Assembly (NCBI GenBank): GCA_043742785.1
Contig: JAYTXU010000063.1
Span: forward strand, 7,997-71,996
Source: Candidatus Omnitrophota bacterium
Lineage (GTDB): Bacteria; Omnitrophota; Gorgyraeia; Zapsychrales; Fredricksoniimonadaceae
Direction of reading: 5' to 3'
Length of the DNA stretch: 64,000 bases
Numbering within the stretch: the first letter of the stretch is position 1; the number at the start of each line of letters is the position of its first letter. The notes under the pieces are model-generated. The model ran no database searches. It saw nothing but the letters and a program-made list of their open reading frames with translations, and had not been told where the DNA came from. The translations under genes were made by a program, and so were the position numbers. Shown one piece after another: positions 14,653-31,402 of this stretch.

Positions 14653-14667
14653 TTCGTCTTCAAAACA

Positions 14668-14754: not shown

Positions 14755-14756
14755 TC

Positions 14757-15308: not shown

Positions 15309-15333
15309 TTTTTATAAACTGAAAAGGAAACCT

Positions 15334-16185: not shown

Positions 16186-16196
16186 TAGGAAAACAT

Positions 16197-16418
16197 ATGT
16201 CTAAACCACAACAATTGATTGAATGGAGTTATTTAGGGGCGAATTACAGTGTGTATATTAAGCATTTCACTGATGATGAGGGGAAGAGGGGAATGACCAT
16301 GATTTTTGAAGACACTACTAATGACAAAGTTACAGAAATGACTGTTCCTACTCGCAAGTTTCCCGAATTTCTAAGGGCTGTTAATGGGGGGGACGAACCT
16401 TATAGAGGATTATTTTAG
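16197..16418 (+). CDS. Small hypothetical protein (73 aa); an inactivated paralog lies at 19115-19261
   Basis: Soluble, ends ...VNGGDEPYRGLF; the degraded copy supports it as a genuine gene family. Confidence 0.5.
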   Translation: MSKPQQLIEWSYLGANYSVYIKHFTDDEGKRGMTMIFEDTTNDKVTEMTVPTRKFPEFLRAVNGGDEPYRGLF

Positions 16419-16464
16419 TTTGATTTTCAATTCATTCTTATTAAATTATGGTATAGTTTAGTTA

Positions 16465-16698
16465 ATGAGCGACCAAAACCAAAATAAAGAAGATAATTTT
16501 CTGCGAACCCTCCTCATATCGATTATTTGTATTCCTCTTATTATTTGGTTACTTTATAATGGTTATCAAAAAAGTCTGCAATCTTCTACTAAATCTATTG
16601 CTTGTGAAAAAAGATGTACTGATCAAGGCCATGCAGGTTATGAATTTAAATGGCCTATGTTCTCCGGTCCTAAATGCACCTGCATAGACATGAAATAA
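16465..16698 (+). CDS. Small membrane-anchored Cys-rich protein (77 aa)
   Basis: One TM helix (LLISIICIPLIIWLLY) then a 4-Cys tail CEKRC...GPKCTC. Confidence 0.4.
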   Translation: MSDQNQNKEDNFLRTLLISIICIPLIIWLLYNGYQKSLQSSTKSIACEKRCTDQGHAGYEFKWPMFSGPKCTCIDMK

Positions 16699-17867
16699 AT
16701 CTAAAAATTAAAGAAAAGTATAAAGTGAAGAAATCTATTTTTCTTATTCCGTTATTAATTCCTTTGCTTATTTTTGGTTTTAACAAAACTAACTTTAAGC
16801 CCTTATGGAATGATGAAATAAACACCCAAACAAAAACTTTAAATCAATCGTACAGTAATATTCTGCTTAGAAACCATGTCTTTGACGACAGTTTAGCTCC
16901 TCTTTTTTATATTCAGCAGAAGATTTTGTGTGATCTTTTTCGTTACCAAACACCTCAAGAATGGTTGAAGGGGGATTGGTCCTATAGAGATCGTTATTCC
17001 AATGTTTTCTTAAGGATTCTTCCTGTTTTTTGGATGTCGTTATCTTTTTTGTTGTTGTTTATTTATTTCTCTAATCGATTTAATCTCTTTATTGGATTCT
17101 TAAGTTTATTTATAGCTTTCTCCACTCACATTCTTCTAGCTTATTGGGCTGAGGCAAGGCCCTATGGCTTATGGGTGTTCTTTACGGTTGTTCAGCTGCT
17201 TCTTTTTATAGAATTAATTGAGGCTCCGGTTGTAGGGGCCAAGAAATGGGTTTGGCTTTCTATTATTCATATTGCTTTAAGCCTAACTTGCATCTTAAGT
17301 TTCTTTCAGATTACGATTGTTTCTATGATCCTTTTCTTATTTAAAGAACGTCGTTGGAATAGATATATATTTCTGTTAGCGGTTCCATTAATTTTTATTT
17401 ATTTCTACAAACCTTTTCTTCATAGTGTTACTTTTTTTTGTCAGGTTCGAGATATTTTTTATAGCATATTACCTAAAGAACGTATTAATATTTTTCAACT
17501 TTATCCTTTGTTGTTGGGATTGTATTTCTTGCAATCTAAGAAATTGATCTCTCCATTATTTCTGAATAGCACTCTGTTAAAGATTGCCCCTTTTTTTATA
17601 GCGTTATTTCTTATGGTATTTGCCGTTTTTATATTTTTAAGTTATTTATGGGGTCACGCTACAGGAGGAGTTCAGGTTGTTACGCCAAGGCATGTTATAT
17701 TTCTAGCGCCTCTTGAAGTTATTGCGGAGACTTATTTAATAGGCATTCTTTGGGAGAGTTTTAAACATCTTTTTTGGATGCGATTGTTGATTCTGGCTAT
17801 TATTACTTTTTTTTATTTTCCACCTTTTAATATATTTTCTTTTGGTTTTCTAGCTTTTGCCTCCTAA
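16674..17867 (+). CDS. Polytopic membrane protein, probable GT-C fold glycosyltransferase (PMT/ArnT-like); alternative GTG start at 16725
   Basis: ~11 TM helices; acidic DD motif in first extracytoplasmic loop (NHVFDDSLAPL); segment NVFLRILPVFWMSLSFLLLF resembles RIPALIFGMGGILFLW of the 56661 GT39-like protein. Confidence 0.4.
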   Translation: MHLHRHEINLKIKEKYKVKKSIFLIPLLIPLLIFGFNKTNFKPLWNDEINTQTKTLNQSYSNILLRNHVFDDSLAPLFYIQQKILCDLFRYQTPQEWLKGDWSYRDRYSNVFLRILPVFWMSLSFLLLFIYFSNRFNLFIGFLSLFIAFSTHILLAYWAEARPYGLWVFFTVVQLLLFIELIEAPVVGAKKWVWLSIIHIALSLTCILSFFQITIVSMILFLFKERRWNRYIFLLAVPLIFIYFYKPFLHSVTFFCQVRDIFYSILPKERINIFQLYPLLLGLYFLQSKKLISPLFLNSTLLKIAPFFIALFLMVFAVFIFLSYLWGHATGGVQVVTPRHVIFLAPLEVIAETYLIGILWESFKHLFWMRLLILAIITFFYFPPFNIFSFGFLAFAS

Positions 17868-17935
17868 TATAGAGGATAGGTGTTTTTATATTTCTGTTGA
17901 TGGTGCTGTGAGGTCTAGCCGCTTTAAAAGTGCGG

Positions 17936-17964
17936 TTGACAAACATCTTTTAAGTATATAAAGT
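17936..17964 (+). promoter_or_regulatory. Promoter-like element: TTGACA (17936-17941) then a TATAAA / TATATAAAGT -10-like region (17957-17966)
   Basis: Direct read; 35-60 nt upstream of the protease ATG (17999) with SD AAGGGGA. Confidence 0.45.
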
Positions 17965-17998
17965 ACAAATTTAGTTATTCAAGATAAGGGGACAATAT

Positions 17999-18937
17999 AT
18001 GAAGAAGGTAATCTTTTATTTCTTAGTTTTATTTATCAGTTTTCTTTCACCTTCTTTAGTAAAAGCAGTAGAAGAAGTTAAAACTATGAATGTAGCGAGT
18101 ACGGCCGAACAATTATTCTTTGTTACTGTAAGATTGGAATGCTCGCGTGTTGGTAAAGATGGGGCGATTGTAGGAGATGTTGGTACAGGTTTTATAGTAT
18201 CTTATAAGTGGCAGAATAAAGAAGGACTCTTTTTAGTTACAAATAAACATGTTTTAAAAGATGTAGAAAAAATTAAATTCTTTTTTATTCAAAGTGATGG
18301 AAAAAAGCCGATTTTAGGAAAGATACAACCTGTTGAAATGAATAATGTGAGATCTTTATGGTATGGACATCCTAACGACAAAGTAGACGTTGGAATAATC
18401 CCAATAAGTGAACTTCTCGATCAGGCTCAAAAAAAGAATTTGCAGTTATTTATCAGGTCTTTTAATAAAGATTTTTTACCAACGCCACAGCAAGCAGAAG
18501 ATTTAGATGCGGTTGAGGAGATTATGTTTGTAGGTTATCCAAGTGCAATTTACGATAAAGTGAATTATTTGCCAATACTTAGACGGGGGATTACTGCTAC
18601 ACCTCTGAATGTAGATTATGAAGGTTTGCCACAATTCTTAATTGATGCAACAGTATTTCCTGGTTCAAGTGGGAGCCCTGTCTTTTTGATGAACCGTGGT
18701 AGCTATTCTACTAAAGAAGGTGGTTTGGTTTCTGGTTCTCGCTTCTTTTTACTGGGATTAATTTCAGAGGTTTATGTGTTTAATCAAACTAATGTAGGGG
18801 GATTTACTGATATACCTTCAACTATCAAACCAGTTGTTGGAACATCTCAAATGATGGGACTCGGTAAAGTAATAAAATCATCAGCTATTTTTGAAACGAT
18901 AGAAACTTTCTTAAGGTTAAATGGTGAAATAAAATAA
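17999..18937 (+). CDS. Secreted trypsin-like (S1 family) serine peptidase
   Basis: Signal peptide; catalytic His context LVTNKHVL, Ser motif FPGSSGSPVFLM (GDSGGP-like), Asp in between. Confidence 0.7.
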   Translation: MKKVIFYFLVLFISFLSPSLVKAVEEVKTMNVASTAEQLFFVTVRLECSRVGKDGAIVGDVGTGFIVSYKWQNKEGLFLVTNKHVLKDVEKIKFFFIQSDGKKPILGKIQPVEMNNVRSLWYGHPNDKVDVGIIPISELLDQAQKKNLQLFIRSFNKDFLPTPQQAEDLDAVEEIMFVGYPSAIYDKVNYLPILRRGITATPLNVDYEGLPQFLIDATVFPGSSGSPVFLMNRGSYSTKEGGLVSGSRFFLLGLISEVYVFNQTNVGGFTDIPSTIKPVVGTSQMMGLGKVIKSSAIFETIETFLRLNGEIK

Positions 18938-18954: not shown

Positions 18955-18990
18955 GCCAGCTAGTGATTTGTTCATTGGCTGGTTTTTTTA
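18955..18990 (+). terminator. Possible rho-independent terminator (5-bp stem CCAGC/GCTGG, long loop, T7 tract)
   Basis: 18956-18960 pairs with 18978-18982, followed by TTTTTTT at 18983-18989; weak stem. Confidence 0.3.
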
Positions 18991-19438: not shown

Positions 19439-22400
19439 ATGACAAGAGGGAAGATATATAAAAAATCTATCGTTTGGTTAGTCTTAGTTGCATTCTTATT
19501 AAATACATTAATAGGAGCGCAGCCTGTACAAGCTGATGTTCCTTTCCTGCCTGCCCCTGGTCAATTAGTTCCATTAACAGCATCATTTTCTTCACCCATG
19601 ATTTGTGGCCTTAAATTCTTTAAGGACAATCCTTTTAAATTTAATTTTGTCATGACTCAAGGAGATCAAGCCTCTGGTGAAAACTCTTTTAATAGAAAAG
19701 TTTTCTTGAAAGAAGAAGCCAGTAGGCTTGTTAAATATTTCTTAGCTTCTTTAGCAATTCCTGAGAAAGACATGTGGGTTAACTTATCACCCTATGATTC
19801 TAATCGTATTATTCCACAAGAATTTGGAATTACGGAAATGGGAAAAGATATGTTAGCTCAAGATTATTTATTAAAGCAGGTAGCTTCTTCTGTGATGTAT
19901 CCGGAAGGAAGTGTGGGCAAGGAATTTTGGAGCAAGATTTACAGGGAAGCTTATAAACGTTTTGGAACAACTAATATTCCCGTTGCCGCCTTTAACAAGG
20001 TTTGGATTATTCCGGGTCAAGCAACTGTCTATGAGGATGCTATTGATAATACAGCGGTGATCACAGAGAGTAAGCTTAAGGTCATGCTTGAAGAAGACTA
20101 TCTGGCGCTTAGTAAATCAACCATTAAGGATCATATAGAAAAAAGCTCAGATGCTAATAGACAATTATCTAATGAATTAATTCGTGAGATAATTCTTCCT
20201 TTGATTGAGAAAGAGGTTAATGAGGGGAAGAATTTTGCAACATTGAGGCAAGTTTATAACTCGTTAATTTTGGCATTTTGGTTTAAAAATAAATTAAAGG
20301 AAGGGTTATTAGCAAAAGGATATTTTGGTCAGAAGAAAGTCAATGGCGTTGATGTAAATGATAAGAATATTGACCAGGAGATCTATAAGCAGTATTTAAA
20401 ATCTTATAAAAAAGGCGTTTATAACTATATCAAAGAGGAATTAACTCCTACCAATGAAGTGGTCCCAAGAAAATATTTTTCTGGAGGGGTTATCTTTGGA
20501 GATTATATCGAAAAAAGTTTTGCAATGATTTCTGGAAAAGAAGCTGCAAAGGCTGCTAGTGCCGTCTTACAGAATGGGGTTGTTACCTTTGAGGCGGGGG
20601 TTGAAGCAATTGTAGGAGATAAAACTAGATTAGAGTCATCAACTATTGGAGGGTTAAGAGAAAGTGGGCTAGTTCAAGATGGCGATACTGTTATAAGAAT
20701 TAAACTTAATGGAGTACAGAAATATAACGAAAAAGTAAGAAAATCTCTGATAGAAAGAATTATCGTTCTTAAGAAGGTATTTGGTTTGTATGTTAGACCA
20801 TTTAAAAGAATACTGCCTGCAATCACAGTGGGAGTTTTTCTTTTGGCGGCTGCTAATTCAGCTTCTGCTAAGGGCTCTGAAGATTTAATGCAGCACGGTT
20901 CTAAGAAAGCAGAAATCAAACAGGTGGTCGCAAGCTCTATCGATATTCAAATACAAAAGCTTAGTGAGAAAATAGGTGCTGATCAAAATGCAGTGGACAA
21001 TATGAGTGCTAAAGGCGGAACCTTAATGATGAATTTTGATAAGGTCCAAAAGCTCAAAGCACAAATCAAGATAGAAAAAGAACAATTGAAAGAGATTCAG
21101 GGAGCAAAGCCTAAGGGTTCTGTTGCTCCTCAAGAGATTTTACCAGTAAAAAATGTGCAGCCAGTTTCAGTAGATACTCATATGGGGTCTGTATCCATAG
21201 CTACCCCAAGCTCTGTAGATGTTCCTGGCTCGGTAGTTCCAACAGTAGTGGTTCCTGTGGATCATGATTCCAATTTAAATGTTCAACCTCAAAGAACTGC
21301 GCCAACAACTACAGTTGCAACGATTACACCGACTTCCACAGGCGATACTCCTGGACTTATTAAAGCACCTGGTAATCAAATTCAGCCCAAGGTTCTTTCA
21401 GGGGATGCTCTTGATCACAATAATCTTTTACCTGATCAGGGAGCGGCACCTACTATTGATACTCAGCACGGCGCAGCCGCAGGGCCTGGAGCGCCGCCAC
21501 CGGATCAACTAGATCAAGGGCTTAATTTAAATACTCAAGTTTCAGGAGCGCCGCCAGCAGCTGTTCAAGTCGCAACAGTTACATCGGGGATTTCAACAGG
21601 GAGTACTAATATGTATTCATCCCAATTGGATGAAGAAGCAGCGGTTAAGCAAGCTAATCTTTTAGAAGAACAAGTATTGTTAAGCCAGCTTCAGAAATCT
21701 TCTGCAGATCAGGATGCTTTAAAGTTAAAAATAGCTGAAGATATGCAGTTGATTCAAAATTATCATCTAGCACTTCCTAATTACAAACCAGTTCCTTTGC
21801 CATACCAAAAAGCGGGGATGACGCCGCCCATTGCTTCCTTTACTCCGGATAATGTCAGCATTGCCTTGCTGGATTATAAGATTAATCAGACATTAAGAAC
21901 AATCAAGAAGCCTATTAAGAATAATCCCTTTGCTCATGGTGCTTTATCGATGAATAATAATGCGCCTTTTGCAAGCGTGCCGGTTGTATCGGTTGGGGTT
22001 GGAACAAGTTTTAGCATTGTCCCTGATGTGCCTTTTGCTGGTTTGATTAATTTGACCCAAATAGTTGGAGGGCTTCCTCAACTTGGTCAGCAAGGCGTTA
22101 TGAGTCAGGTGTTGGGGCCTGCAGTGGCTGTTGATATTCTAGCTAATTTAAGAAATTATGTGGTAATGCATCCGACCAAGGGACAGGATGTTCGTTATGA
22201 TGCACGTATGACTCCATTTAAAGGGGTTGTTGAATCACTAACAGTGCATGTGACTCCAGCTGTTTCTTTTGACCAAGAAGGGCATCGAGTTGAAAAGAAT
22301 CTTTATCGTGTAGGGATTGTTAAAACCTTAGGTGCCGTAGCAGGAAAGGTGGATTCCCTTTTAGGAGATAAAGGACTCTTTGGGCATAGCAGCGATCACT

Positions 22401-25400
22401 TTATTTTCCAAAATCTTGGTTACCAGATAAAGGTGGATGATTATCACCAGGCGTTTACCTATCAGGCGGCTGTTAATCAGGATACCAATACAAGCTATAT
22501 CAATGCCTACAATATCGAAGATTCAACGACCCGCTACAGAGAAAATACTCATCACGGTTGGGATCTTGTTGATTCGTCTACTCCGTTAGATTCTCACTTG
22601 GATTATTATAGCGCCACTGTTCATGGTTTTATTCTACATGCCGATTCAACAACTGGAACAATGACAGGCCAGGGAGATGTTTTTACCTCTTCAACCTTTA
22701 TTACCGATGCTTTTGCTAAGCAAATAGCCCAGCAAGACGGGCAGACTATTGTCGGAAGATCTTATCTGAGTACTAATTCAGTTTTAGTAGAACCTATTTC
22801 TTCTTTGAAGGATCTTAATTTAGAAAAACAGTTATCAAAGGGTGTGGATAAGAATGGTCATCTTATTTGGGGAGTATTAAGAAATCATTTGGGACATATT
22901 GTTAAATTAATTATTGATCCGCGTGAACTTAACGATACAAGTTCTTTGACTGATGATAGCGGGAACTCAGTTAGATTTATTCCTGGCAAAGCTTATAAAG
23001 CCTCTTCAACCACGGGAGAGATTGGTAGTACTATTCGGGATTATACCATTGATGAGTTTAGGATTGTTGGTGAAGTTAAAGGGATGTTCAAGAAAAATAC
23101 GGTTGCAGATAAATACGGCCATTATGATCTATCTGAAAGACCGCAATTACCAGAATTACCTTCAGAGCTGAAATCTTTAGTTTCTGGAAACGGCTTGATT
23201 TTAGAATCCTCTGTGTCATTAAAAGCCATTTATCAGACAGCAAGGAATTATTATGGGGTTGTGTATTTTGCAGATGGAAGAGTGCCCGCTGTCCTTACAG
23301 GTTTAAAGAATGTTAAAACGATTGGATCCCTGGATGAAAAAAACGGGGTGACCCGATTGCCTAACGGATTATATACTCTTTCAAGATTTAAAAAGAATTT
23401 GGATGGCAATGCCCTTGTTCTTTTAGATGGTAAGAAGCAGGTTATAGCCGTTGTGGATGCATCTGATAAATTAAAACAGGAACGCATTAAAAATCTTCAT
23501 GGAGAAAATAAACGTATTGATGATCACAAGGTTACTTTAACAACTTTAAAGGATGGAGGGATTGAAGCAGAAGACCACAGAGTGCTTGATCCTGAGAGCG
23601 GCAAGCCTCAGTTTACAATTTTTACGAAAGGCAATACGTTTACACCAGAGCAGACAGCATTTAATGCAGCAAACCCTCAACAGATTCATTTAGAAAGAGA
23701 ATTAGCGGATTTGGCTATTAAAGGCCAGGCCATCACCATTCCTGTTGAAGGATCTAATAGACAAAGATGGATTATTCTAGAAAAAGCACCTACTTCTCAA
23801 TTAAAAAGATTAGAACAATCAAGTCAACAGGTGGCACCTGTTCGAAATATAAAGGTAGAAACCTTAACAGGGCCGGATGGAAAGGTTTTTCATGGGGTGA
23901 CCATTGATACGGAAATGTTTGGTGCTGATGATATTCAAAAGTTAAACAGTCTTGGCGCGACTGCCGTTCGTACTTATTATCCAATTTCTAAAAAACTTGC
24001 TGTTCTGCTTGCCACTCAAACTCAAGTCAAAACGATTATTGTAGGCATTCCCTTAAATTCAAAAGCTTATAATCCGGAGAATTTGTCCAATTTTTGGGGA
24101 GATACTGTGGGGGATCCAGATGAAAGAGTTTCTTTAGAAAATAGCAGCAAGTATATATCCTATCTTAAGCAGCTGGCAGCTACTCTTGATGGCAATGCAA
24201 AAATTGTTGTTGATTTAGGTAATGAACTGAATTTACATCCGGATTGGATTGGAGTTACGAATAATGGGTCAGACCTAGGCAGATTTTTTAGAAAGGTAGA
24301 CAAGCATGCTACGGATATAAAAGCAGTATTAGGAGATAGTGTTACAACGTCCTTCACCTTGGGAGATAATCCAATAGATTTTGTAACAGCATTGACAAAT
24401 GCACCTAATGTTCAATATTGGGGGGTTAACTCTTATCGGGGTATAGATGGTTTAGAAAATGATTGGATGAAGGCGACTAAAGAAGCAGGTGTTTTTAGGC
24501 CATTCTATGTGGCTGAAACAGGAAATAATTCTAATGCAGGAGAAGCAGTGCAGGCGGAAGCAGATGTTCACGCTTGGAAAACAGCGGAAGGCAAGATGGG
24601 TGTCAGTGTTCTATTAATGACTCTTCAAGATAATCCTAAAAAGATGGCCAATAATAAACAGGAAAACTTTGGTTTGTATGACCAATATGGGAAGCCAAAA
24701 GCAGGTGTCAGAAAGATTACCGAAGCTTGGGGAGAAGCAGCGACTTCGACTACAGCACCAATTTTGTTCGATGATACTCTAACCGGGGTTAATGAACACT
24801 ATGCCCTTGTGCGTCTTCGTTCAAATCATCCTGCCGGAACTACTGCAGAAGAGGTTGTTAAACAATTAAAAACTGAACGCGTTCGCGTTAGTGATCTAGA
24901 TCGATTAGCTCCAGCTCTTGGAAAATTAGGCGTTGAAATATTGAAGATTGATTCTCAAGGCAATACAGTTGGACGATATGTCAAGATGTTTGGGGATGGT
25001 TATCAGTTGTGGGAAAATGTTTCAATTGAAGCCAATATGAATAAATATTTTCAGATTAATCGCAATGATGGGAAAGGTTCTGAATATGTTTCATTAGATG
25101 ATTTAAAGTCTCCTTCAACTCAGGAAGCTATTCGTCAGGTTGCTGACGAAGTTACCATGATGGATATGAATCAGCATGTGATGGCACGGGTATTTTTAAA
25201 TAAAAATTTTAATGGCAGCCGTATTGAAGTCTTACAGGACAATCATACATCTTCCATTTTTGAATTGGCTTCATTTAGTCCAACAGATTTATCTGGTCCT
25301 GTTGCTAAAACAGTTTCTATTAATCCTAAAGATTCCAAGGATGGCTTCTTGCATGTCATCACCACTGATTTACGCCAAGTTAATCAAGGCGTGCAGGTGG

Positions 25401-28400
25401 AAGATGTTTACAAGCCGGTTACCGGGGGGAAACCAGTTTTGCTTTACAGTGACCGATTCTTACAAAACAATCGCATTTATTTTAAAGATGGCCATGAGTA
25501 TTATTCCGTTTTAATTGATGCTTCCCATAAGGATGGGCAAACCGTGACGATTGACGGACAGACGACAGAGAATGTGACAGGAATCTTTGATTTTAATAAG
25601 GACTCCAATAGCGGGTATCACGTCAATCTTCGTAATCTGGATAAGAATGGCGGTTTTGCTCCTATTCGTTTTACAAAATTCAAGGATGGACAGATTAATG
25701 TTGATCAAACAGGATTTGTTAAGATTCGACAAGGAATGGATCGCAAAGCTATTTTAGATAATGTTGTTAGATCGTCTGTTCTTAATATGACAGACGTATA
25801 CAGATATAGACCAGATGGACAAATTGATACAAGAGAAGTTAGTTTTTTAAATAATGGACAATGGCAATTAAATTGGACTTTAAAAGGAGCTGATATTGCT
25901 GTTCAACCTGTCCTGGTTAGTCAATTATCTAGCAATCAAGTGATTGCAGAGGCTTTTGCTAAATATAAGATTGATAAAGATACCATCTTAATTGAAACCA
26001 TCAAAACAGATACCGATGGTGTTGTCAGTAAGGATTATCGTATCTTAGGAGATATCTTAGAGAAGAAAATCATTTCTGTGATCGAGCAGGGTGGGGGAGT
26101 CATCAAGACTATTGTGGGGTTAAATTTTGACAACACCACAGGCGAGCAGATACTGTCCTATACCTTAAGTTCTGATGGGCAGGTTCAATCTTTAAGTAGA
26201 ACGGTTCCCAATGAATTATCCTATCAGCAGCTTCTTCCTCAAGGAGTCGAGACAACCTATGCACAGTTTATGGAGAAACATTTAAATGTTCAGGGAGCTA
26301 ATTATTGGAATGAGTTGGAACAAAGAGGTGTCTCAAGAAGTTTTGTACCAGTGGTGGTTGAAGAAATTCCTTTTCTGGTTCAAACAGATAAACCTGGTGC
26401 TAATAGTTTTAAATCTATTGAACCCAAGATACGTCCTCTCGTTGAAGCTTATACAAAGGCCAGTGCTCAAGACCGTCCTGCTCTATTAAAACAAATTTCA
26501 GATACCGTTCGCCAGTATCATCAAGAGAGTAATACTGCGCATTATACGCAAGAGCAAGGGCAGCCGACCTATCATTATTTATCACCTCCTAATGATAGTC
26601 GAGGACGTGATTATATTACCAAGACAAGCGATGGGGATATTTCGCTCAATATTTGGCCACTTGAAGGTAAGGGAAATTTTCCAGCTAATATTTTGCCGGC
26701 TAGTATTGTTGTTAATCAGTCGACTGGCGAATTGCAGAGAACAATGGTTTTTGATCATCATGAAAAGCTACAGTTTCAGAATTTCCAAAATGAGCCCTAT
26801 GAACTGGGCGTGAATGTTTATAAGGTTTCGGATGATTTAAGTTTAAAGGAGGCTACATTTACGAGTTTAGGAGATCCCATTTCTAAAACCACTCTTTATC
26901 AGCGTAATCGTGTTGCTAATGGAATATTTGGTGTACAGACAAGAGGGGAAGAAACAATTGCTTTTGATCCGTTATTCCCGTACTCGCTTCCTTTGGCTGG
27001 GACCTTAGATGAAGATGGTCGTTTGACTAAGGCAACTTTGCATTTGGAATTTAGTGTTGAGAATGGGCATCAGAAAATTGTGGAAACATCCTTGGTCAAT
27101 GAGCCAACAGCTCCAGGGGATTTTAGAGTTAAAACGCAGACCATTGTGGATGGTAAGCCAATTTCTGGGACTCTGCATGAAGAAGGAACACTTTTGGGTT
27201 ATAGGAAAAGCATGGAGGCTAATTGGAAAGTATTTGCCGTTTATCCTGCTTTAATCTTAGGGTTAATTATCAGCGGAGATTTACTTAAGAAAATTAGGTT
27301 TAATAGAATTAAAAAGGCATTGGCTGAGGAGGCTACTAATGCAGCCTTAGAAGAAACATCAGAGCCTCCTAAAGAAAGAGAAATTGTTTATCCTTCTTGG
27401 CAGGAGTATGGATTTAGTAAAGGTGCTTTGGCCGTTGCTGCTAGAAGATACGAAGGAACAATTGTTCCCATGTTAAAGAAAGAATCAATAGAGGATGTTT
27501 TAAAAGAATATTTCCGTGGTTATCAAATATGGCGTAAACAGGTCATGGGTATTGAAGAGCCATTTATCCCCACTATTGAAGATTTATGGGTGATGTTTTT
27601 AAGAGATGCGGATAATGATATTTTGAATGCAGATGTGCCAGACGGCCTTAATTATTTGATGCATAAAGCTGTGGAAGCTAGAAAGATTAACCCAGTGGCT
27701 GCAGATATAGGGGGTTTTATAAGAAAGGAATACACGCGCTGGCATAATATTATTGAAATTCAGCAAACAACCTTTCAGGGTTTATCAGGGGGGAAGATGA
27801 AAAACGTGGTCCCCTATGATTATTATTTTACCGTCGAAGATCTTAATGAAATGTTTCGTACTAGGAAGAATGTTGAATGGTACGATGATTTAGGGTATTC
27901 CTTGGATCGTAAAGCAGATAGAAGAAGCTCTATCTACAATGATTTTATAGCCAGTTTGAGGGAAAAGGTTAAGGCTGCTAAAGCAGGAATTGAAGCCATG
28001 GCTGATAGTGTGGGTGGCAATGTATTTAGAATGAAGAGAAAGGTGGCAGATGTTGCAGAGTATCAGGAGTATGTTCAATTTTTTACTAGAGTTCAAAAAG
28101 GTGAGTATACCGTATCAGATAATTTTACCTCCACAGAAATATCTGCAGAACAAGCTAATCTTTTAATTAATAACAAACCATTTATTAGAAAAACATTTGC
28201 GGAATCAGGATCATGGGTTGGGAAAATGCCTTTGCCGTTGCGTATGATCAAACCATTAGCCCAGTTTATCCGAAATAGTTATAACCAGTTAACCTATCCA
28301 ATTATATTAACTTCGACCGTGGGAGCTTATGTGGCAGCTTATGACGGCATCATAGGCTGGGGGACTGCTACCCTTGCGGCAGCTATTAGTCTTGTTGTTA

Positions 28401-31400
28401 TTAAAGGAATTTATTATCCATTAAGTTATTTATTAGACCGCAAGGTTAATGTTAAAAGTTTTGGAAAGCCAACTGATTTCGGGGCTGGTTATAAGAAAGA
28501 AAAATTAACGAGTGCTCAGAAATGGTATCGAACAGGTTTTTGGGCATCCGTGATATCGGCTAAGGTAGCCTGGGATATTTTCCTTATTCATCATTTTCTT
28601 ATTCCTCATCAGGAAACAATCGGCGCAAGTTATTATCCGGTCATTTTTGGTCATGAAATCCCCGTTAATATGAATTTATTATTGATGGGAATGCAGTGGT
28701 CAACGAGCGCTCTATTTCTTTATGTCAGTAATTTTGCGGCTAATTATTTGGTTAAACCATTTTTTACTTATATTCATGGTTCCTTAAGAGGATTAGGAAC
28801 AATTAAAGAATCTAAGCAAATTCTCGCCCTTCAAAAAGAAGGTATTTTGGATCGTTTGATTGAACAGAAGCTTCTTGTCAAAGGAGGAGCTGGATTAACG
28901 GATGAACAGCGCCTTGCTGCCAGAAGAGCTATTATCAAGTTAGCCTTTGATCAGCATCGTTATGTCAGAGACGAAGTCAGCGATGAGGAATACAAAATAG
29001 CGATTGAGGAAGGACGATTAGACCATATTAAGATTGAAGATGTTCAAAAAAGTGTCACTCAATCGGTGAATGCCTTACTGATGGAAATGCCGCGTATGCC
29101 TCATCCGGAAGACAATACACCAATCACAGTCTTGAGCCCTGTGTTTGGGGAAGATATTATTTATGCCTATAACAACAGTGTTCTTCCAACAACCTTGGAT
29201 ATGATGCTTAACACCGGCTATACAAATCTTAATTTTATTATTTCAAAAGCCCCGCAGCGTTGGAAGAATCTTATTGAACGTGTCAGAAGAGATAAGATAG
29301 GGACAGAAGAAGAATGGCTACGCATGGAAGCTTTATTGGATCAAAATGGATTGCTGGGAGAAATCAGTGAAGATTTAAAAATGCAGATTCGTCTTTGGGC
29401 TTCCTATGAAGGGCAGCCCTTTGCACGCACATTAGATGGACTTATGAATATTGTCAGATGGCATAAGCTTTATTTAAAGCTTTCTTTTCCAACCTGGAGT
29501 GAAGAACAGATTCGAGAGAGGACCAATTATGATGTCCAAATCCTTTGGGCTTATCAGATTTGGGGAGATGTTTTAAATGCAACTGATGCAAAACCAGAGC
29601 TGCAGTTAAAGAAAAAAGACACCCTTTATTTATTAAAGAAATACTACGATGAATTAGGGTATTTAGTTGAGATTGCCTCTTTACAGATTAGAAACGGAGT
29701 CAGTGTCAAGGTCTTGTCTCGATATAATCCAACAACAGAGCAAATTGAGGATATTGCAGATATTCCCAACACTGAGAATAAAGCTATCACACTTGAAGGA
29801 AAACCATCCAATCAAATGCACGCCCAAACCTTTGCTAGAAACAAGTTTCGATTTACTATTGATATGAATCAGGATTTAGACCCGCTTGAAGCGATGAAAA
29901 TTCCTATTATCATTCAAGAGTTTAAAAATAAGAATGTGGCTCTTGTGAATACTCCAGAAATGATTTTTACAGGCAGTTTTACGAAGACCGGTATGTTCCA
30001 TGCAATTTCTGATCGTACCTTTGTTACTTCTGATAAAAGACATATGGGGATTAACACTTCAGCTTCTCATCATGGCCATCCAGATGTGGGGACAGATGTC
30101 TATGATATGGAAGATGGCGGTCTTTCCTCGACTGTTGCTGTTTCTGAGGATTACAAGCGCGGTATTCGATATATGTTAAGAGGAAGAACTATTTTAAACA
30201 GAGAATATATGCAGTGGAAAAAAGCAAGAGAGCTTTCCTGGACAGGAACAGATGGTATTTGGCGCAAATTTTCTATGGGGGCAGCCCAGCTTCTGCTTGG
30301 TCGTTATGCCCACTGGATGAATAAATCCTTTGGACCGGTGGCTGGAGCTGGAGAATTTTATTCGGGGCCTCATTTTTATACTTTAAATACGATTGCAGCT
30401 CTTGGATTTTTTGTGTATACCCTTAATGTCATGATTGGAGGAATTAGTCCATTTACAGCATTTCCAGCGCCCGCTGTAACGACAATTACGAGTGTTTTTT
30501 GGATAGGGCAGGCGCTTACGGTTATTGGATTCACGCAGATGGCCTTGGAATCTGGATTTAAGAAAGCTTTTACTACATTTGCTAAAATAATGCCTTTTAT
30601 GGCGCCTTTTTATATTGCTCATATTTTCACCTATCAGGCAGGGCTTCTCTCTGGGCTGGCTGGTCTGGCTGCTTATGTTGTAACCGGACGCGGATTTAAT
30701 AGAGAGAATTTTGAAGTGGATAAATTATTAAAAGTATATTCTAAATCTCACGTTGCTATTGGGGTGATTGGTCTTACTCTTTCAGGCCTTGCTTATTCTA
30801 TATGGAGAAATGAAACATTTTTATTATCTTCGGTGACTGTGCTTTCCTTTCTTTTTCCTGCGGTGATACCTTTTATTATGAATCCAGGAAATTATCCCAT
30901 TTATGGGGTCACGGTTAGAAGATCCGCAGAACTCTTTAAAAAGAATTCCAGCAGCAGTGTAAAATCTTTAAAGAAAACTATTTGGGATGAAGGATTGGCT
31001 CAAGGAAATATTCGAAAGGCTTTAGTAGATGGTATTCCGGAAGCTGTTTCATTTGGAGTTTGGTTTGGTATCACAGCTCCTGTGGCTCTTCCTGGCTTAG
31101 TAATCAATAAGATTAAAGGTGCGCCAGAATATCCTGGACAAGTTCAAGCAGTTGTTGAAACAAAAGAGGAAGATAAAGCCATGCTGACAGCGCAGCCTAA
31201 AGAAGAGGCTACTTCTGGTGGTATTGATCTTTCTAAGACAACTGTCAATGTTGTTTCTCTCAGAGGGTCTATTCAAATAGCCTTTGATGATTCCGATATG
31301 TTGCATTTGTTGTTGAACGCGGATGGTCTTGCCCCTATAATTTATGATATTAAAATGATGACACCAGCCATGGCTGATCATTTCGTAGGTCTGGATTATT

Positions 31401-31402
31401 GA
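19439..31402 (+). CDS. Giant multidomain protein (3,987 aa): signal peptide, long extracytoplasmic region with clan GH-A glycosidase domain, C-terminal FKS1/callose-synthase-like (GT48) glucan synthase module
   Basis: Uninterrupted 11,964-nt ORF; N-terminal signal-like MTRGKIYKKSIVWLVLVAFLLNTLIGAQPVQA; GH motifs GNELN (E at 24224-26) and VAETG (E at 24515-17); GT48 motif block HHGHPD...GG...SED.......LRG.....EY.Q..K.R.L (30068-30232) and TGRGF (30683-30697); TM clusters at ~aa 2600, 2950-3100, 3620-3870. Confidence 0.85.
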   Translation: MTRGKIYKKSIVWLVLVAFLLNTLIGAQPVQADVPFLPAPGQLVPLTASFSSPMICGLKFFKDNPFKFNFVMTQGDQASGENSFNRKVFLKEEASRLVKYFLASLAIPEKDMWVNLSPYDSNRIIPQEFGITEMGKDMLAQDYLLKQVASSVMYPEGSVGKEFWSKIYREAYKRFGTTNIPVAAFNKVWIIPGQATVYEDAIDNTAVITESKLKVMLEEDYLALSKSTIKDHIEKSSDANRQLSNELIREIILPLIEKEVNEGKNFATLRQVYNSLILAFWFKNKLKEGLLAKGYFGQKKVNGVDVNDKNIDQEIYKQYLKSYKKGVYNYIKEELTPTNEVVPRKYFSGGVIFGDYIEKSFAMISGKEAAKAASAVLQNGVVTFEAGVEAIVGDKTRLESSTIGGLRESGLVQDGDTVIRIKLNGVQKYNEKVRKSLIERIIVLKKVFGLYVRPFKRILPAITVGVFLLAAANSASAKGSEDLMQHGSKKAEIKQVVASSIDIQIQKLSEKIGADQNAVDNMSAKGGTLMMNFDKVQKLKAQIKIEKEQLKEIQGAKPKGSVAPQEILPVKNVQPVSVDTHMGSVSIATPSSVDVPGSVVPTVVVPVDHDSNLNVQPQRTAPTTTVATITPTSTGDTPGLIKAPGNQIQPKVLSGDALDHNNLLPDQGAAPTIDTQHGAAAGPGAPPPDQLDQGLNLNTQVSGAPPAAVQVATVTSGISTGSTNMYSSQLDEEAAVKQANLLEEQVLLSQLQKSSADQDALKLKIAEDMQLIQNYHLALPNYKPVPLPYQKAGMTPPIASFTPDNVSIALLDYKINQTLRTIKKPIKNNPFAHGALSMNNNAPFASVPVVSVGVGTSFSIVPDVPFAGLINLTQIVGGLPQLGQQGVMSQVLGPAVAVDILANLRNYVVMHPTKGQDVRYDARMTPFKGVVESLTVHVTPAVSFDQEGHRVEKNLYRVGIVKTLGAVAGKVDSLLGDKGLFGHSSDHFIFQNLGYQIKVDDYHQAFTYQAAVNQDTNTSYINAYNIEDSTTRYRENTHHGWDLVDSSTPLDSHLDYYSATVHGFILHADSTTGTMTGQGDVFTSSTFITDAFAKQIAQQDGQTIVGRSYLSTNSVLVEPISSLKDLNLEKQLSKGVDKNGHLIWGVLRNHLGHIVKLIIDPRELNDTSSLTDDSGNSVRFIPGKAYKASSTTGEIGSTIRDYTIDEFRIVGEVKGMFKKNTVADKYGHYDLSERPQLPELPSELKSLVSGNGLILESSVSLKAIYQTARNYYGVVYFADGRVPAVLTGLKNVKTIGSLDEKNGVTRLPNGLYTLSRFKKNLDGNALVLLDGKKQVIAVVDASDKLKQERIKNLHGENKRIDDHKVTLTTLKDGGIEAEDHRVLDPESGKPQFTIFTKGNTFTPEQTAFNAANPQQIHLERELADLAIKGQAITIPVEGSNRQRWIILEKAPTSQLKRLEQSSQQVAPVRNIKVETLTGPDGKVFHGVTIDTEMFGADDIQKLNSLGATAVRTYYPISKKLAVLLATQTQVKTIIVGIPLNSKAYNPENLSNFWGDTVGDPDERVSLENSSKYISYLKQLAATLDGNAKIVVDLGNELNLHPDWIGVTNNGSDLGRFFRKVDKHATDIKAVLGDSVTTSFTLGDNPIDFVTALTNAPNVQYWGVNSYRGIDGLENDWMKATKEAGVFRPFYVAETGNNSNAGEAVQAEADVHAWKTAEGKMGVSVLLMTLQDNPKKMANNKQENFGLYDQYGKPKAGVRKITEAWGEAATSTTAPILFDDTLTGVNEHYALVRLRSNHPAGTTAEEVVKQLKTERVRVSDLDRLAPALGKLGVEILKIDSQGNTVGRYVKMFGDGYQLWENVSIEANMNKYFQINRNDGKGSEYVSLDDLKSPSTQEAIRQVADEVTMMDMNQHVMARVFLNKNFNGSRIEVLQDNHTSSIFELASFSPTDLSGPVAKTVSINPKDSKDGFLHVITTDLRQVNQGVQVEDVYKPVTGGKPVLLYSDRFLQNNRIYFKDGHEYYSVLIDASHKDGQTVTIDGQTTENVTGIFDFNKDSNSGYHVNLRNLDKNGGFAPIRFTKFKDGQINVDQTGFVKIRQGMDRKAILDNVVRSSVLNMTDVYRYRPDGQIDTREVSFLNNGQWQLNWTLKGADIAVQPVLVSQLSSNQVIAEAFAKYKIDKDTILIETIKTDTDGVVSKDYRILGDILEKKIISVIEQGGGVIKTIVGLNFDNTTGEQILSYTLSSDGQVQSLSRTVPNELSYQQLLPQGVETTYAQFMEKHLNVQGANYWNELEQRGVSRSFVPVVVEEIPFLVQTDKPGANSFKSIEPKIRPLVEAYTKASAQDRPALLKQISDTVRQYHQESNTAHYTQEQGQPTYHYLSPPNDSRGRDYITKTSDGDISLNIWPLEGKGNFPANILPASIVVNQSTGELQRTMVFDHHEKLQFQNFQNEPYELGVNVYKVSDDLSLKEATFTSLGDPISKTTLYQRNRVANGIFGVQTRGEETIAFDPLFPYSLPLAGTLDEDGRLTKATLHLEFSVENGHQKIVETSLVNEPTAPGDFRVKTQTIVDGKPISGTLHEEGTLLGYRKSMEANWKVFAVYPALILGLIISGDLLKKIRFNRIKKALAEEATNAALEETSEPPKEREIVYPSWQEYGFSKGALAVAARRYEGTIVPMLKKESIEDVLKEYFRGYQIWRKQVMGIEEPFIPTIEDLWVMFLRDADNDILNADVPDGLNYLMHKAVEARKINPVAADIGGFIRKEYTRWHNIIEIQQTTFQGLSGGKMKNVVPYDYYFTVEDLNEMFRTRKNVEWYDDLGYSLDRKADRRSSIYNDFIASLREKVKAAKAGIEAMADSVGGNVFRMKRKVADVAEYQEYVQFFTRVQKGEYTVSDNFTSTEISAEQANLLINNKPFIRKTFAESGSWVGKMPLPLRMIKPLAQFIRNSYNQLTYPIILTSTVGAYVAAYDGIIGWGTATLAAAISLVVIKGIYYPLSYLLDRKVNVKSFGKPTDFGAGYKKEKLTSAQKWYRTGFWASVISAKVAWDIFLIHHFLIPHQETIGASYYPVIFGHEIPVNMNLLLMGMQWSTSALFLYVSNFAANYLVKPFFTYIHGSLRGLGTIKESKQILALQKEGILDRLIEQKLLVKGGAGLTDEQRLAARRAIIKLAFDQHRYVRDEVSDEEYKIAIEEGRLDHIKIEDVQKSVTQSVNALLMEMPRMPHPEDNTPITVLSPVFGEDIIYAYNNSVLPTTLDMMLNTGYTNLNFIISKAPQRWKNLIERVRRDKIGTEEEWLRMEALLDQNGLLGEISEDLKMQIRLWASYEGQPFARTLDGLMNIVRWHKLYLKLSFPTWSEEQIRERTNYDVQILWAYQIWGDVLNATDAKPELQLKKKDTLYLLKKYYDELGYLVEIASLQIRNGVSVKVLSRYNPTTEQIEDIADIPNTENKAITLEGKPSNQMHAQTFARNKFRFTIDMNQDLDPLEAMKIPIIIQEFKNKNVALVNTPEMIFTGSFTKTGMFHAISDRTFVTSDKRHMGINTSASHHGHPDVGTDVYDMEDGGLSSTVAVSEDYKRGIRYMLRGRTILNREYMQWKKARELSWTGTDGIWRKFSMGAAQLLLGRYAHWMNKSFGPVAGAGEFYSGPHFYTLNTIAALGFFVYTLNVMIGGISPFTAFPAPAVTTITSVFWIGQALTVIGFTQMALESGFKKAFTTFAKIMPFMAPFYIAHIFTYQAGLLSGLAGLAAYVVTGRGFNRENFEVDKLLKVYSKSHVAIGVIGLTLSGLAYSIWRNETFLLSSVTVLSFLFPAVIPFIMNPGNYPIYGVTVRRSAELFKKNSSSSVKSLKKTIWDEGLAQGNIRKALVDGIPEAVSFGVWFGITAPVALPGLVINKIKGAPEYPGQVQAVVETKEEDKAMLTAQPKEEATSGGIDLSKTTVNVVSLRGSIQIAFDDSDMLHLLLNADGLAPIIYDIKMMTPAMADHFVGLDY
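23843..24745 (+). other. Domain within giant protein: clan GH-A (beta/alpha)8 retaining glycoside hydrolase-like (GH5/GH17/GH72/GH128-type motifs)
   Basis: beta1 HGVTID; GATAVRTYY; acid/base-like VVDLGNELNLH; nucleophile-like FYVAETGNN ~97 residues later. Confidence 0.55.
27230..31399 (+). other. Module within giant protein: FKS1-like (GT48) beta-1,3-glucan synthase (TM1, cytoplasmic N-domain, ~5 TMs, catalytic domain, C-terminal TM bundle)
   Basis: Motif-by-motif match to fungal Fks1 with identical spacings for HPD-9-GG, ED-8-LRG, LRG-5-EY and EY.Q..K.R.L, with TGRGF ~170 aa downstream; NP-containing helix in the C-terminal TM bundle. Confidence 0.7.

Follow-up and report, generated by a model that had tools for sequence, protein, structure and literature searches.

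Does a bacterium encode a genuine GT48 enzyme, a family so far regarded as fungal and plant (PMC6821405), and what might a protein that carries such a module do? The question is raised by a single uninterrupted ORF of 3,987 aa at 19439..31402 (+, stop codon included) in a 64,000-nucleotide stretch of DNA, hereafter the window; a preliminary description had singled out nucleotides 27230-31399, which correspond to residues 2598-3987, as an Fks1-like synthase fused to an exported region. An identical copy of the protein (P0002) is found on an NCBI contig of 82,011 bp. A terminator-like hairpin at 18955-18983 comes after the upstream gene, so that the GT48 gene is probably transcribed as a unit of its own, and its neighbors (LigA, an XerC/D-type recombinase, a dcw cluster and tRNAs) are bacterial. 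The named best matches of the window LigA are exclusively Omnitrophota MAGs (56-71% identity); the contig is from Omnitrophota, and the host of the GT48 gene is bacterial.

Residues 2598-3987 form a true GT48 module of the Fks1/callose-synthase family, an assignment that is backed by sequence, predicted fold and active-site conservation. The Pfam model Glucan_synthase (PF02364) matches residues 3203-3820 with E = 1.2e-39 and 136.7 bits (cut-off 37.2), whereas FKS1_dom1 has no match in the 3,987-aa protein. Yeast Fks1 chains in the PDB are recovered with E = 9.7e-15 by a single-sequence query and 4.9e-24 by a two-sequence profile. All motifs quoted in the preliminary description are present in the ORF, namely HHGHPD (aa 3544), SED (aa 3569-3571), LRG, EYMQWKKAREL, TGRGF and FIMNPGN (around aa 3815), and phmmer aligns the protein's motifs with HYGHPD, NED, LRG, EYYQCGKGRDL, TGRGF and FNP of Fks1. 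The spacing claimed for them holds in substance because both spacers match Fks1 in length, although HHGHPD and GG are separated by 10 aa rather than 9, and LRG and EY by 6 rather than 5.

The predicted structure leads to the same family. The AlphaFold (AF2) model of the module is confident (pLDDT 91.1, pTM 0.92), and its 13 best Foldseek matches in the PDB are exclusively Fks1 or Fks2 (E = 3.9e-31 to 5.5e-20, query TM-score 0.49-0.63), followed by BcsA with E = 1.1e-7 and a TM-score of 0.28. From N- to C-terminus, the module runs through one TM helix, some 320 aa of helical domain, a TM cluster, a GT domain of roughly 500 aa and finally a TM bundle (Table 1). The topology sketched earlier was thus roughly right, except that the first TM cluster is modeled with four long helices instead of about five (model helices 288-319, 325-351, 376-412 and 430-467), hydropathy peaking there at aa 2970-2995 and at aa 3037-3055. 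The all-helical domain is modeled with a pLDDT of mostly 85-97 (model blocks 1-29) and falls within Foldseek alignments to Fks1/Fks2 of about 1,350 columns; at the sequence level it matches neither Fks1 nor FKS1_dom1. The C-terminal TM bundle, presumably the glucan channel, can be aligned with residues 1361-1493 of Fks1, TGRGF and FNP among them (model helices 997-1198), and its last helix, aa 3871-3892, is placed by hydropathy. Tails similar to the one that follows close P0001, P0003, P0004, P0016, P0023 and P0024.

Table 1. Features of the GT48 protein, with residue and window coordinates and the basis of each assignment
Feature	Residues (aa)	Window position	Strand	Basis
Signal-peptide-like segment; basic n-region, hydrophobic core aa 10-28, ...VQA/D	1-32	19439..19534	+	Hydropathy, direct reading
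Conserved N-terminal domain	33-450	19535..20788	+	46-51% identical in P0004-P0007, P0015
Second signal-peptide-like hydrophobic segment	458-476	20810..20866	+	Hydropathy
Clan GH-A (beta/alpha)8 domain, GH158-like	1480-1790	23876..24808	+	
Beta-rich membrane-proximal region, distantly Rhs/Tc-toxin-shell-like	1870-2550	25046..27088	+	AF2, Foldseek
TM helix linking the predicted exported part to the cytoplasmic module	2598-2616	27230..27286	+	Strongest hydropathy peak before module
Cytoplasmic all-helical domain, at Fks1 accessory (AC) position	~2640-2935	27356..28243	+	Model, Foldseek
First TM cluster, four long helices	2937-3116	28247..28786	+	Model and hydropathy
GT-A-fold GT48 catalytic domain	~3125-3640	28811..30358	+	PF02364, Fks1 alignment, residue mapping, conservation
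C-terminal TM bundle with TGRGF (aa 3749) and FIMNPG	3646-3892	30374..31114	+	Fks1 alignment, model
Conserved C-terminal tail (...GGIDL...)	3906-3987	31154..31399	+	46-64% identity

Judged from sequence, both enzymatic domains of the protein have kept their catalytic residues. Among the 13 active-site residues listed for Fks1 (Zhao et al., 2023; PMC10499315), ten are identical here (E3238, K3455, D3475, N3477, E3507, H3547, E3570, D3571, K3595 and R3597), and nine of these are invariant in an alignment (A2) of 24 bacterial-type and 32 eukaryote-type sequences, the tenth, R3597, deviating in one eukaryote-type row. Fks1 D1080 is replaced by E, the commonest residue at that position among the eukaryote-type rows, E1173 by D, and K1172 by S at a position that is variable everywhere. 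The second enzymatic domain, absent from the preliminary description, is GH158-like and constitutes the best evidence on polymer identity. The acid/base is predicted to be N1595-E1596 (nt 24221-24226) and the nucleophile E1693 (nt 24515-24517), and in GH158(Pro) the catalytic residues at the aligned positions are Glu143 and Glu229; across ten such domains (alignment A6) the catalytic Glu residues are invariant, and the Asn is kept in nine. The structures nearest to the domain are those of three endo-beta-1,3-glucanases belonging to two families, GH158 and GH157 both being endo-beta-1,3-glucanases (PMC7157763; PMC13195107; PMC10229575), while GH72 and GH17 enzymes give weaker matches with the same profile. 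Moreover, it recurs outside the subclade of the window protein, in the bacterial GT48 proteins P0029, P0104, P0136 and, weakly, P0020 and at the loci L003, L034 and L048. The retention of both catalytic Glu residues and this recurrence across bacterial GT48 proteins are new here.

We believe, with a probability of roughly 0.68, that this protein of an Omnitrophota bacterium is a beta-1,3-glucan synthase and remodeler in one chain, which makes and exports a glucan and trims or transfers it. The cytoplasmic GT-A domain would take a nucleotide sugar, presumably UDP-glucose, and polymerize it processively, and the chain would be threaded through the module's own TM channel, as has been proposed for Fks1 and shown for BcsA. 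The N-terminal part of about 2,560 aa would be exported by its signal peptide and tethered by the linking helix, which would position it near the chain exit. There, the retaining GH158-type domain could cut the emerging beta-1,3-glucan or move it by transglycosylation, thereby setting chain length or joining the glucan to an acceptor, and the beta-rich region, which lies between this domain and the membrane, may steer the chain or keep hold of it, as BcsB does with cellulose. We infer the donor sugar, the linkage and the topology, as well as the coupling of the two activities and whatever biological role the polymer may have.

The module could also be a genuine processive synthase of the GT48 fold whose polymer is not a linear beta-1,3-glucan, owing to another donor or a mixed or different linkage. 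Bacterial-type and eukaryote-type sequences share a mean identity of about 26% over the trimmed GT region, so that donor and linkage could differ, several motif positions depart from the consensus (HHGHPD for HYGHPD, SEDY for NEDI, WKKARE for AGKARE), and relatives with the cellulose-synthase fold, such as BcsA, hyaluronan synthase and chitin synthase, yield quite different polymers. We nevertheless regard another polymer as rather unlikely, given that the UDP-Glc and acceptor-binding residues assigned by Zhao et al. (PMC10499315) are kept and that the fused GH domain points to beta-1,3-glucan.

The synthase-remodeler reading further requires the GH domain to lie across the membrane from the GT domain, and residues 33-2597 are indeed predicted, from sequence features, to be exported beyond the cytoplasmic membrane. 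The fusion to an exported region proposed in the preliminary description fits the signal-peptide-like N-terminus, whose hydrophobic segment is shared with P0004-P0007 and P0015, and the positive-inside charge at the linking helix, whose strongly basic C-terminal flank (KKIRFNRIKK) places that flank inside. The conserved N-terminal domain has no match in Pfam, PDB sequences or PHROG, and at locus L037 two more copies of it begin genes downstream of the GT48 gene. The beta-rich region is conserved in P0004-P0007 and modeled for the most part with a pLDDT of 70-90; its Foldseek matches to 8qja_D (VgrG-Rhs, E = 6.4e-10) and 4o9x (8.4e-8) have TM-scores of just about 0.1. If the second hydrophobic segment, aa 458-476, spans the membrane, it could serve as a stop-transfer anchor and leave residues 477-2597, and with them the GH domain, in the cytoplasm. 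The protein would then be a membrane-anchored cytoplasmic multi-enzyme resembling the Omnitrophota giants, many of which one preprint prefers to place on the cytoplasmic face, and synthesis and hydrolysis would not be coupled across the membrane. The ORF at locus L025, which joins a GT48 module with the typically cytoplasmic domains Methyltransf_28 and RelA_SpoT, is in line with such an arrangement. However, we consider it improbable, as the linking helix would then put the AC-like domain outside, apart from the GT domain, whereas the whole module aligns in the model with Fks1, whose AC and GT domains are both cytosolic. In addition, aa 458-476 has counterparts in P0004, P0005 and P0006 but none in P0007 and P0015, where the N-terminal segment and the counterpart of the linking helix are the only hydrophobic stretches before the module, and the single Cys in 3,987 residues and the Pro/Thr/Val-rich linker weakly suggest export.

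It is very improbable that the module is merely a remnant or a non-catalytic scaffold, for instance a membrane anchor or channel, and makes no polymer: the loss of Fks1 K1172 would agree with such a role, but the conserved active site argues against it, as does the preservation of the module over its whole 1,200 aa, its counterparts in P0001 and P0004 being 51-53% identical and those in remoter bacterial proteins 30-39%. That the gene stems from eukaryotic contamination or a chimeric assembly, or was recently acquired from a fungus, a plant or a protist, as the hitherto fungal and plant range of GT48 (PMC6821405) might suggest, has next to no chance of being correct and is refuted on present data, since the ORF lies within 64 kb of co-oriented bacterial genes of uniform GC and skew, relatives are found on two complete bacterial chromosomes and in one single-cell genome, an independent ENA contig carries the same fusion, and the NJ tree separates bacterial-type from eukaryote-type sequences with 100/100 bootstrap and nests no bacterial-type sequence within any eukaryotic lineage.

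Far from being the singular oddity that it first seemed, the protein belongs to a large and diverse bacterial GT48 clade, with relatives in 47 species-representative genomes, mostly of Omnitrophota and some of Endomicrobia/Elusimicrobiota; at most of the 24 loci checked, the GT48 frame stays open past both ends of the 20-kb locus (>6,800 codons). The earlier statement that such a protein had not been described is true of the literature searched, where we found no account of a bacterial GT48 fusion and where the main text of the Omnitrophota giant-protein papers names neither GT48 nor glucan synthase, but public databases already hold these proteins with a precomputed PF02364 match, nearly all NCBI source names encountered being "hypothetical protein".

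Fks1/Fks2 and the callose synthases belong to the same family by HMM and share the overall predicted fold, in which an accessory helical domain is followed by TM helices, the GT-A domain and a TM bundle. Common to the window protein and fungal and plant GT48 are GKPxNQ, IDxNQD, HxGHPD, (N/S)ED, GKxR(D/E), TGRGF and FNP, as well as the catalytic residues. In contrast to Fks1, the window protein has a bacterial host, is about 15% identical over the structure and is modeled with four TM helices before the GT domain instead of six. Compared with fungal and plant GT48 in general, it lacks the FKS1_dom1 sequence signature, has a predicted exported region of about 2,560 aa ahead of the module and ends in a conserved tail found specifically in this bacterial group. 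Regulation of the bacterial module by Rho1 is not expected, Rho1 being a GTPase of eukaryotes.

Among bacterial systems, BcsA-BcsB and CrdS are processive membrane synthases that export their polymer through their own channel, and the arrangement proposed here is alike. BcsB is a periplasmic partner that stands beside the synthase and is held by a single TM helix, and we propose a BcsB-type arrangement for the exported part. BcsA and CrdS are, however, GT2 enzymes, and the TM-score to BcsA is 0.28 against about 0.6 for Fks; Pfam detects no PilZ domain in the window protein, so BcsA-type control by c-di-GMP is not indicated. In bacteria, the known route to beta-1,3-glucan is through the GT2 curdlan synthase CrdS (PMC6821405). 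The Omnitrophota giants ("Archaeovorin"-type) are multi-domain membrane proteins of the same phylum (West-Roberts et al., 2023 preprint), in which glycosyl transferases and hydrolases are combined with methyltransferases and numerous TM helices, and the GT48 frames of more than 6,800 codons at most loci checked here resemble them; the window protein is far smaller, and Pfam detects no SecA-DEAD domain in it.

The GH domain shares the clan GH-A (beta/alpha)8 fold, with Asn-Glu acid/base and Glu nucleophile aligned, with BuGH158, GH158(Pro) and the Labilibaculum GH157 structure. It is 14-19% identical to the GH158 structures, and the GH158 Ig-like C-terminal domain was not identified here, the model beyond the barrel being of low confidence. 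Whereas those enzymes are free or lipoprotein hydrolases of glucan-utilization loci, the present domain sits inside a synthase chain. The pairing itself recalls fungi, in which Fks/Bgs synthases go together with an extracellular beta-1,3-glucan enzyme, whether Gas/Gel (GH72), Bgl2 (GH17) or Ghs2 (GH16), and two reports portray the Bgs3-Ghs2 module of S. pombe as such a partnership (PMC13612389; PMC12933572). In the fungal pairs the partners are separate proteins, whereas here a GH domain of a different family and the GT48 synthase share one chain.

First, the giant protein carries in a single chain a complete GT48 module with an intact active site and a GH158-like domain with an intact catalytic pair, and this pairing recurs. 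The GT48 membership of the module is near certain. One uninterrupted open reading frame of 3,987 codons runs along the + strand (19439..31402), in which nt 27230-31399 encode residues 2598-3987, and residues 3203-3820 match the Pfam Glucan_synthase family (PF02364) with 136.7 bits against a curated cut-off of 37.2 (E = 1.2e-39), covering profile positions 9-685 of 819. Against the same family, 152.5 bits are reached by P0004 and 185.9 bits by P0005, two database relatives. Queried against PDB sequences, the module matches solely Fks1 and Fks2/Gsc2; S. cerevisiae Fks1 is matched by phmmer in three collinear stretches (E = 9.7e-15), or with E = 4.9e-24 when a two-sequence profile is used. All motifs quoted in the preliminary description are present and are aligned by phmmer with their counterparts (window protein/Fks1: GKPSNQ/GKSDNQ, IDMNQD/IDANQD, HHGHPD/HYGHPD, SED/NED, LRG/LRG, EYMQWKKAREL/EYYQCGKGRDL, TGRGF/TGRGF, and FIMNPG/FVFNPH). 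The HHGHPD-to-GG and LRG-to-EY spacers count 10 and 6 residues rather than the 9 and 5 given there, and both are as long as in Fks1. Of the two Pfam families that the preliminary description proposed to search for, PF02364 is thus found, whereas FKS1_dom1 (PF14288), with which fungal and plant members begin, is absent at Pfam E <= 1, and neither phmmer nor the two-sequence profile aligns any sequence ahead of Fks1 residue 830. FKS1_dom1 lies outside the CAZy definition of GT48, which is based on the catalytic domain, and despite the missing signature an all-helical domain occupies the place of the Fks1 accessory domain in our model. NCBIfam gave no match to the giant protein.

The predicted fold leads to the same family. 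Our AlphaFold2 model, built from a 56-sequence alignment, spans residues 2650-3849, with the last TM helix outside the modelled range, and has a mean pLDDT of 91.1 and a pTM of 0.92. In the structural comparison that had been suggested as a check, the best 13 Foldseek matches in the PDB are all Fks1/Fks2 cryo-EM structures (E = 3.9e-31 to 5.5e-20, about 1,350 aligned columns, query TM-score 0.49-0.63). The model reproduces the Fks1 architecture of an accessory domain, TM helices, a GT-A domain between TM helices and a C-terminal TM bundle; unlike Fks1, the window module has four TM helices ahead of the GT domain. Bacterial cellulose synthase BcsA follows next in the ranking, with hyaluronan and chitin synthases after it, and P0004 shows a marginal Glyco_trans_2_3 match of 27.2 bits beside its 152.5 bits for Glucan_synthase. 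A GT2 enzyme of the BcsA, CrdS, or hyaluronan/chitin synthase type can nevertheless be rejected, given E = 1.1e-7 and a query TM-score of 0.28 for BcsA versus 3.9e-31 and 0.62 for Fks; GT2 Pfam domains are absent from the window protein.

In addition, the active site speaks against a pseudo-enzyme. Mutagenesis has demonstrated the importance of 13 Fks1 active-site residues, in the set E851, D1080, K1082, D1102/N1104, E1155, K1172/E1173, H1195, N1220/E1221, D1222, and K1246/R1248 (Zhao et al., 2023; PMC10499315). Mapped through the phmmer alignment, 10 of the 13 are identical in the window protein (E3238, K3455, D3475, N3477, E3507, H3547, E3570, D3571, K3595, and R3597), and nine of these are invariant across 24 bacterial-type and 32 eukaryote-type sequences; the tenth, R3597, is shared by every bacterial-type row and replaced by K in one eukaryote-type row. 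The window protein does differ from Fks1 at D1080, which is E here as in most eukaryote-type rows, at E1173 (D), at N1220 (S), and at K1172 (S), which is variable among bacterial-type and eukaryote-type sequences alike. A degenerate, inactive enzyme is therefore rejected, and because its active-site residues are conserved the GT48 module looks catalytically competent. Taken together, PF02364, the Fks1 alignment, the predicted fold, and the active-site residues confirm the observation behind the preliminary description and support its Fks1-like GT48 interpretation. From the conserved residues and the fused beta-1,3-glucanase-like domain alone, we infer a UDP-glucose:1,3-beta-D-glucan 3-beta-glucosyltransferase activity.

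Second, the ectodomain contains a clan GH-A domain (aa 1480-1790) whose closest relatives of known structure are enzymes of GH158 and, nearly as close, GH157. GH158 and GH157 are endo-beta-1,3-glucanase families (PMC7157763; PMC13195107; PMC10229575). A model of aa 1400-2597 made from eight sequences (pLDDT 64, pTM 0.55) shows clear beta/alpha alternation at residues 1486-1692, and Foldseek ranks GH158 endo-beta-1,3-glucanases above other TIM barrels for this barrel. A profile of 10 such domains matches GH158(Pro) (9oro_A) with E = 5.7e-20 and 74.8 bits over 259 of its 279 positions, a GH157 chain with 9.6e-14, and BuGH158 (6pal_A) with 7.5e-12, while GH2 glucuronidases (1e-11 and weaker), GH17 (4e-7), and the GH72 protein Gas2 (2e-5) are matched more weakly. 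Significance against the PDB is reached only by this domain-level profile enlarged with distant homologues: the domain as a single sequence finds nothing there, and a profile of the whole region aa 1400-2597 places GH158 first with a non-significant E = 0.15. For this reason we assign the domain, from sequence comparison, as a distant GH158 member or a sister family. In GH158(Pro), the LGNE and AETG columns map to chain positions 135 and 221, and in the window protein N1595-E1596 and E1693 stand right behind the model strands read as beta-4 and beta-7, which gives a predicted (beta/alpha)8 barrel with an Asn-Glu acid/base after beta-4 and a Glu nucleophile after beta-7. In GH158 enzymes a C-terminal Ig-like domain packs on the barrel; in our model, pLDDT is below 50 at model residues 295-469, behind the barrel. 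An HMM of the GH domain also matches other bacterial GT48 subclades (the relatives P0029, P0104, P0136 and, weakly, P0020, as well as the GT48-bearing loci L003, L034, and L048), in some of which it precedes the GT48 module and in others follows it.

Residues 1-32 of the giant protein resemble a Sec signal peptide. Behind them lie a conserved domain (aa 33-450), for which the nearest relatives show 46-51% identity, and a poorly conserved Pro/Thr/Val-rich linker. The N-terminal domain has no match among PDB sequences, nor the ectodomain among PHROGs. In locus L037, from another Omnitrophota MAG, two ORFs that closely follow the GT48 gene (12659-13636 and 16591-17730) begin with copies of the N-terminal domain (43-44% identity). 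Large exported proteins of one family may share this domain as their head. Foldseek relates the beta-rich membrane-proximal region to Rhs/Tc-toxin BC shells (8qja_D, VgrG-Rhs, E = 6.4e-10) with a TM-score of only about 0.1, and the giant protein has no Pfam RHS_repeat match; weaker, partly duplicated copies of this region occur in P0069 and P0104. The tail that ends the giant protein also closes P0001, P0003, P0004, P0016, P0023, and P0024, and its GGIDL motif recurs in the consensus of the wider alignment A5. A basic stretch (KKIRFNRIKK) lies directly after TM 2598-2616, and four long helices, an even number, separate the accessory-like from the GT domain, whose Fks1 counterparts are both cytosolic. 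Because of this basic flank, the even number of helices, and the Fks1 alignment, aa 2617 onward would start in the cytoplasm, and we argue that aa 33-2597 lie outside the cytoplasmic membrane. The internal-signal-peptide-like segment, which consists of the basic stretch KKVFGLYVRPFKR, then ILPAITVGVFLLAAA, and then NSASA|KG, has a counterpart in P0004-P0006 and none in P0007 and P0015. Were this segment to cross the membrane, it would contradict the topology derived from GT48.

Coordinates of features of the giant protein and its surroundings
Feature	Residues	Window position (nt)	Remarks
Riboflavin gene group		ribBA 6062-7264; ribD 9028-10137	flanks the giant gene opposite the dcw cluster
Trypsin-like peptidase-domain ORF		17999-18937	last of five upstream ORFs
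Terminator-like hairpin		18955-18983	between upstream ORFs and giant gene
Second hydrophobic, internal-signal-peptide-like segment	458-476	20810-20866	after the conserved N-terminal domain
Beta-rich membrane-proximal region	1870-2550	25046-27088	beta-rich in the model at 1870-2490, pLDDT 70-90
Conserved C-terminal tail, ~80 aa	3906-3987	31154-31399	...GGIDL..., end ...HFVGLDY
dcw cluster (mraW, ftsI, murE, murF, mraY, ftsA)		mraW 40001 through ftsA 54310-55542	farther downstream of the giant gene

Third, the module has many bacterial relatives. When 1.84 billion cluster representatives were searched exhaustively with phmmer, 608 proteins matched at E <= 1e-3 (79 at E <= 1e-30), the closest of which are very long (4,202, 4,461, 5,338, 5,222, 6,521, and 7,886 aa). 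A word-indexed homologue search found one relative of the module and none of the GH domain, and a contig scan with N-terminal peptides gave no match. A pattern derived from a 15-sequence sub-alignment, the 56-sequence alignment being too diverse for one, was scanned over one genome per GTDB species and detected 47 loci, mostly from Candidatus Omnitrophota; some of the 47 are labelled coarsely as "uncultured Planctomycetales". Elusimicrobiota are represented as well (for example, Endomicrobium embiratermitis and Proruminimicrobium), one locus comes from a single-cell genome, and two lie on chromosomes that are complete, the 3.36-Mb OY759724.1 of an Omnitrophota bacterium and the 1.84-Mb OY762939.1 of a member of the Endomicrobiaceae. 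Among 24 loci inspected, the GT48 frame mostly stays open across the entire 20-kb locus (>6,800 codons), being cut at both locus ends in 17 of the 24, and in L025, the locus on OY759724.1 (1-20540), it is open throughout 20.5 kb (>6,846 aa) and also encodes Methyltransf_28, RelA_SpoT region, and UPF0489 domains. Since these frames are open throughout, the GT48 modules are parts of very long Omnitrophota genes in these loci. Shorter complete relatives exist too, such as an ORF of 2,471 aa in L024 and one of 2,777 aa in L046. On the independent ENA contig of L001, a 51%-identical module is preceded, across a frameshift, by sequence homologous to the final part of the giant protein's ectodomain, which shows that the fusion is conserved. 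Many of the housekeeping genes encoded there (1-15516; ERZ25039482 contig_43239), among them DNA polymerase A, Rho, RF-1, and a glycogen synthase-like gene, are fragmented as in an indel-rich assembly, and the seemingly "stand-alone" GT48 protein P0001 (1,365 aa) is thus probably the frameshifted end of a window-like fusion. Where source names are given, the relatives are "hypothetical protein" entries from Omnitrophota, Endomicrobiaceae, and loosely binned "Patescibacteria/Parcubacteria" MAGs. The GT48-containing P0014 (MBP7215934.1, 6,521 aa) is named "FAD-dependent oxidoreductase" by NCBI; automatic names of multi-domain giants appear to follow one domain and mask the glucan-synthase module.

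The bacterial and eukaryotic enzymes are well separated. In an unrooted neighbour-joining tree, computed from 603 trimmed columns for 94 GT regions, 42 query-side sequences split from the 52 others in 100/100 bootstraps, although the query-biased sample, labels on some sequences alone, the simple method, and the missing root mean that no direction of descent can be read from it. All query-side sequences with source names come from bacterial MAGs, and on the other side every labelled sequence is eukaryotic (Cyanophora, Protostelium, Picozoa, Aphanomyces, Apiculatamorpha, and Adiantum). The mean identity of the GT region is 0.33 among bacterial and 0.43 among eukaryotic sequences, and 0.26 when one group is compared with the other. 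This phylogeny, called for earlier as a test for contamination or horizontal transfer, excludes a recent acquisition from a particular eukaryote.

The giant gene also sits in a bacterial genome. The genes around it share its orientation, GC content is uniform (0.33-0.41), and GC skew is positive. Downstream of it are tRNA-Pro, an NAD-dependent DNA ligase, an XerC/D-type recombinase, a member of the CCA/poly(A)-polymerase family, and a DHH phosphoesterase. All named relatives of the window LigA come from Candidatus Omnitrophica/Omnitrophota MAGs (56-71% identity), and one 82,011-bp NCBI contig encodes proteins identical to both this LigA and the giant protein. With such bacterial neighbours, uniform GC, and Omnitrophota LigA relatives, eukaryotic contamination, already deemed unlikely in the preliminary description, is untenable, as is a chimera. 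The + strand carries almost all window ORFs of at least 100 aa, and GC skew remains positive from end to end; the window therefore probably falls within a single replichore. Five ORFs precede the giant gene (13972-18937); three of them are without a Pfam match and one has a weak DUF975 match below the curated cut-off. Rfam detected nothing in the window beyond two tRNAs, and no FMN riboswitch.

Based on these results, we propose that the GT48 module would polymerise glucose from UDP-glucose into beta-1,3-glucan and export the polymer through its own channel, and that the tethered GH domain would cut or transglycosylate the chain outside the membrane. The beta-rich membrane-proximal region may guide the chain, as BcsB does for cellulose, and a role of the polymer in the envelope, in a capsule, or in attachment to host or prey is each conceivable. 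A wider reading, to which we give a probability of roughly 0.3, would be that GT48 is no eukaryotic invention: a deep and diverse GT48 clade of Omnitrophota and Elusimicrobiota would form the sister group of the eukaryotic FKS/callose synthases as a whole, and eukaryotes would have obtained their gene from such bacteria or through a very early exchange. In this reading the bacteria, which are uncultured and often depend on a host, would use single-chain synthase-glucanase machines encoded in giant genes to coat their surface with beta-1,3-glucan or to lay down a matrix of it for attachment.

Finally, these proteins represent a real and, apparently, so far undescribed bacterial GT48 branch whose fusion architecture is novel. 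A few bacterial GT48 entries may be listed in CAZy and InterPro. The earlier view that the bacterial homologue is undescribed holds for the literature searched, as full-text searches, including one for PF02364, returned no paper describing bacterial GT48 and none linking a glucan synthase to Omnitrophota or Elusimicrobiota; it does not hold for public databases, which already contain bacterial GT48 proteins with precomputed PF02364 matches. Two preprints and one paper on Omnitrophota giant genes mention glycosyl transferases only generically and never name a glucan synthase. The module would offer a first functional handle on part of these enigmatic genes. Enzymes of the Fks1/callose-synthase type are key to fungal and plant walls and the target of echinocandin and triterpenoid antifungals. 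The bacterial branch would provide an outgroup for the origin of the eukaryotic enzyme, and its members, in which Rho1 dependence is not expected, could be simpler subjects for the structure and mechanism of an enzyme that is hard to handle. A 2025 Fks review presents the family as fungal, and bacteria are described as using the unrelated GT2 enzyme CrdS for beta-1,3-glucan, with GT48 as the fungal and plant solution (PMC6821405). Moreover, a coupling of glucan synthesis to remodeling has been proposed for fungi only recently, and the natural synthase-glycosidase fusion of these bacteria would provide direct genomic evidence for it.
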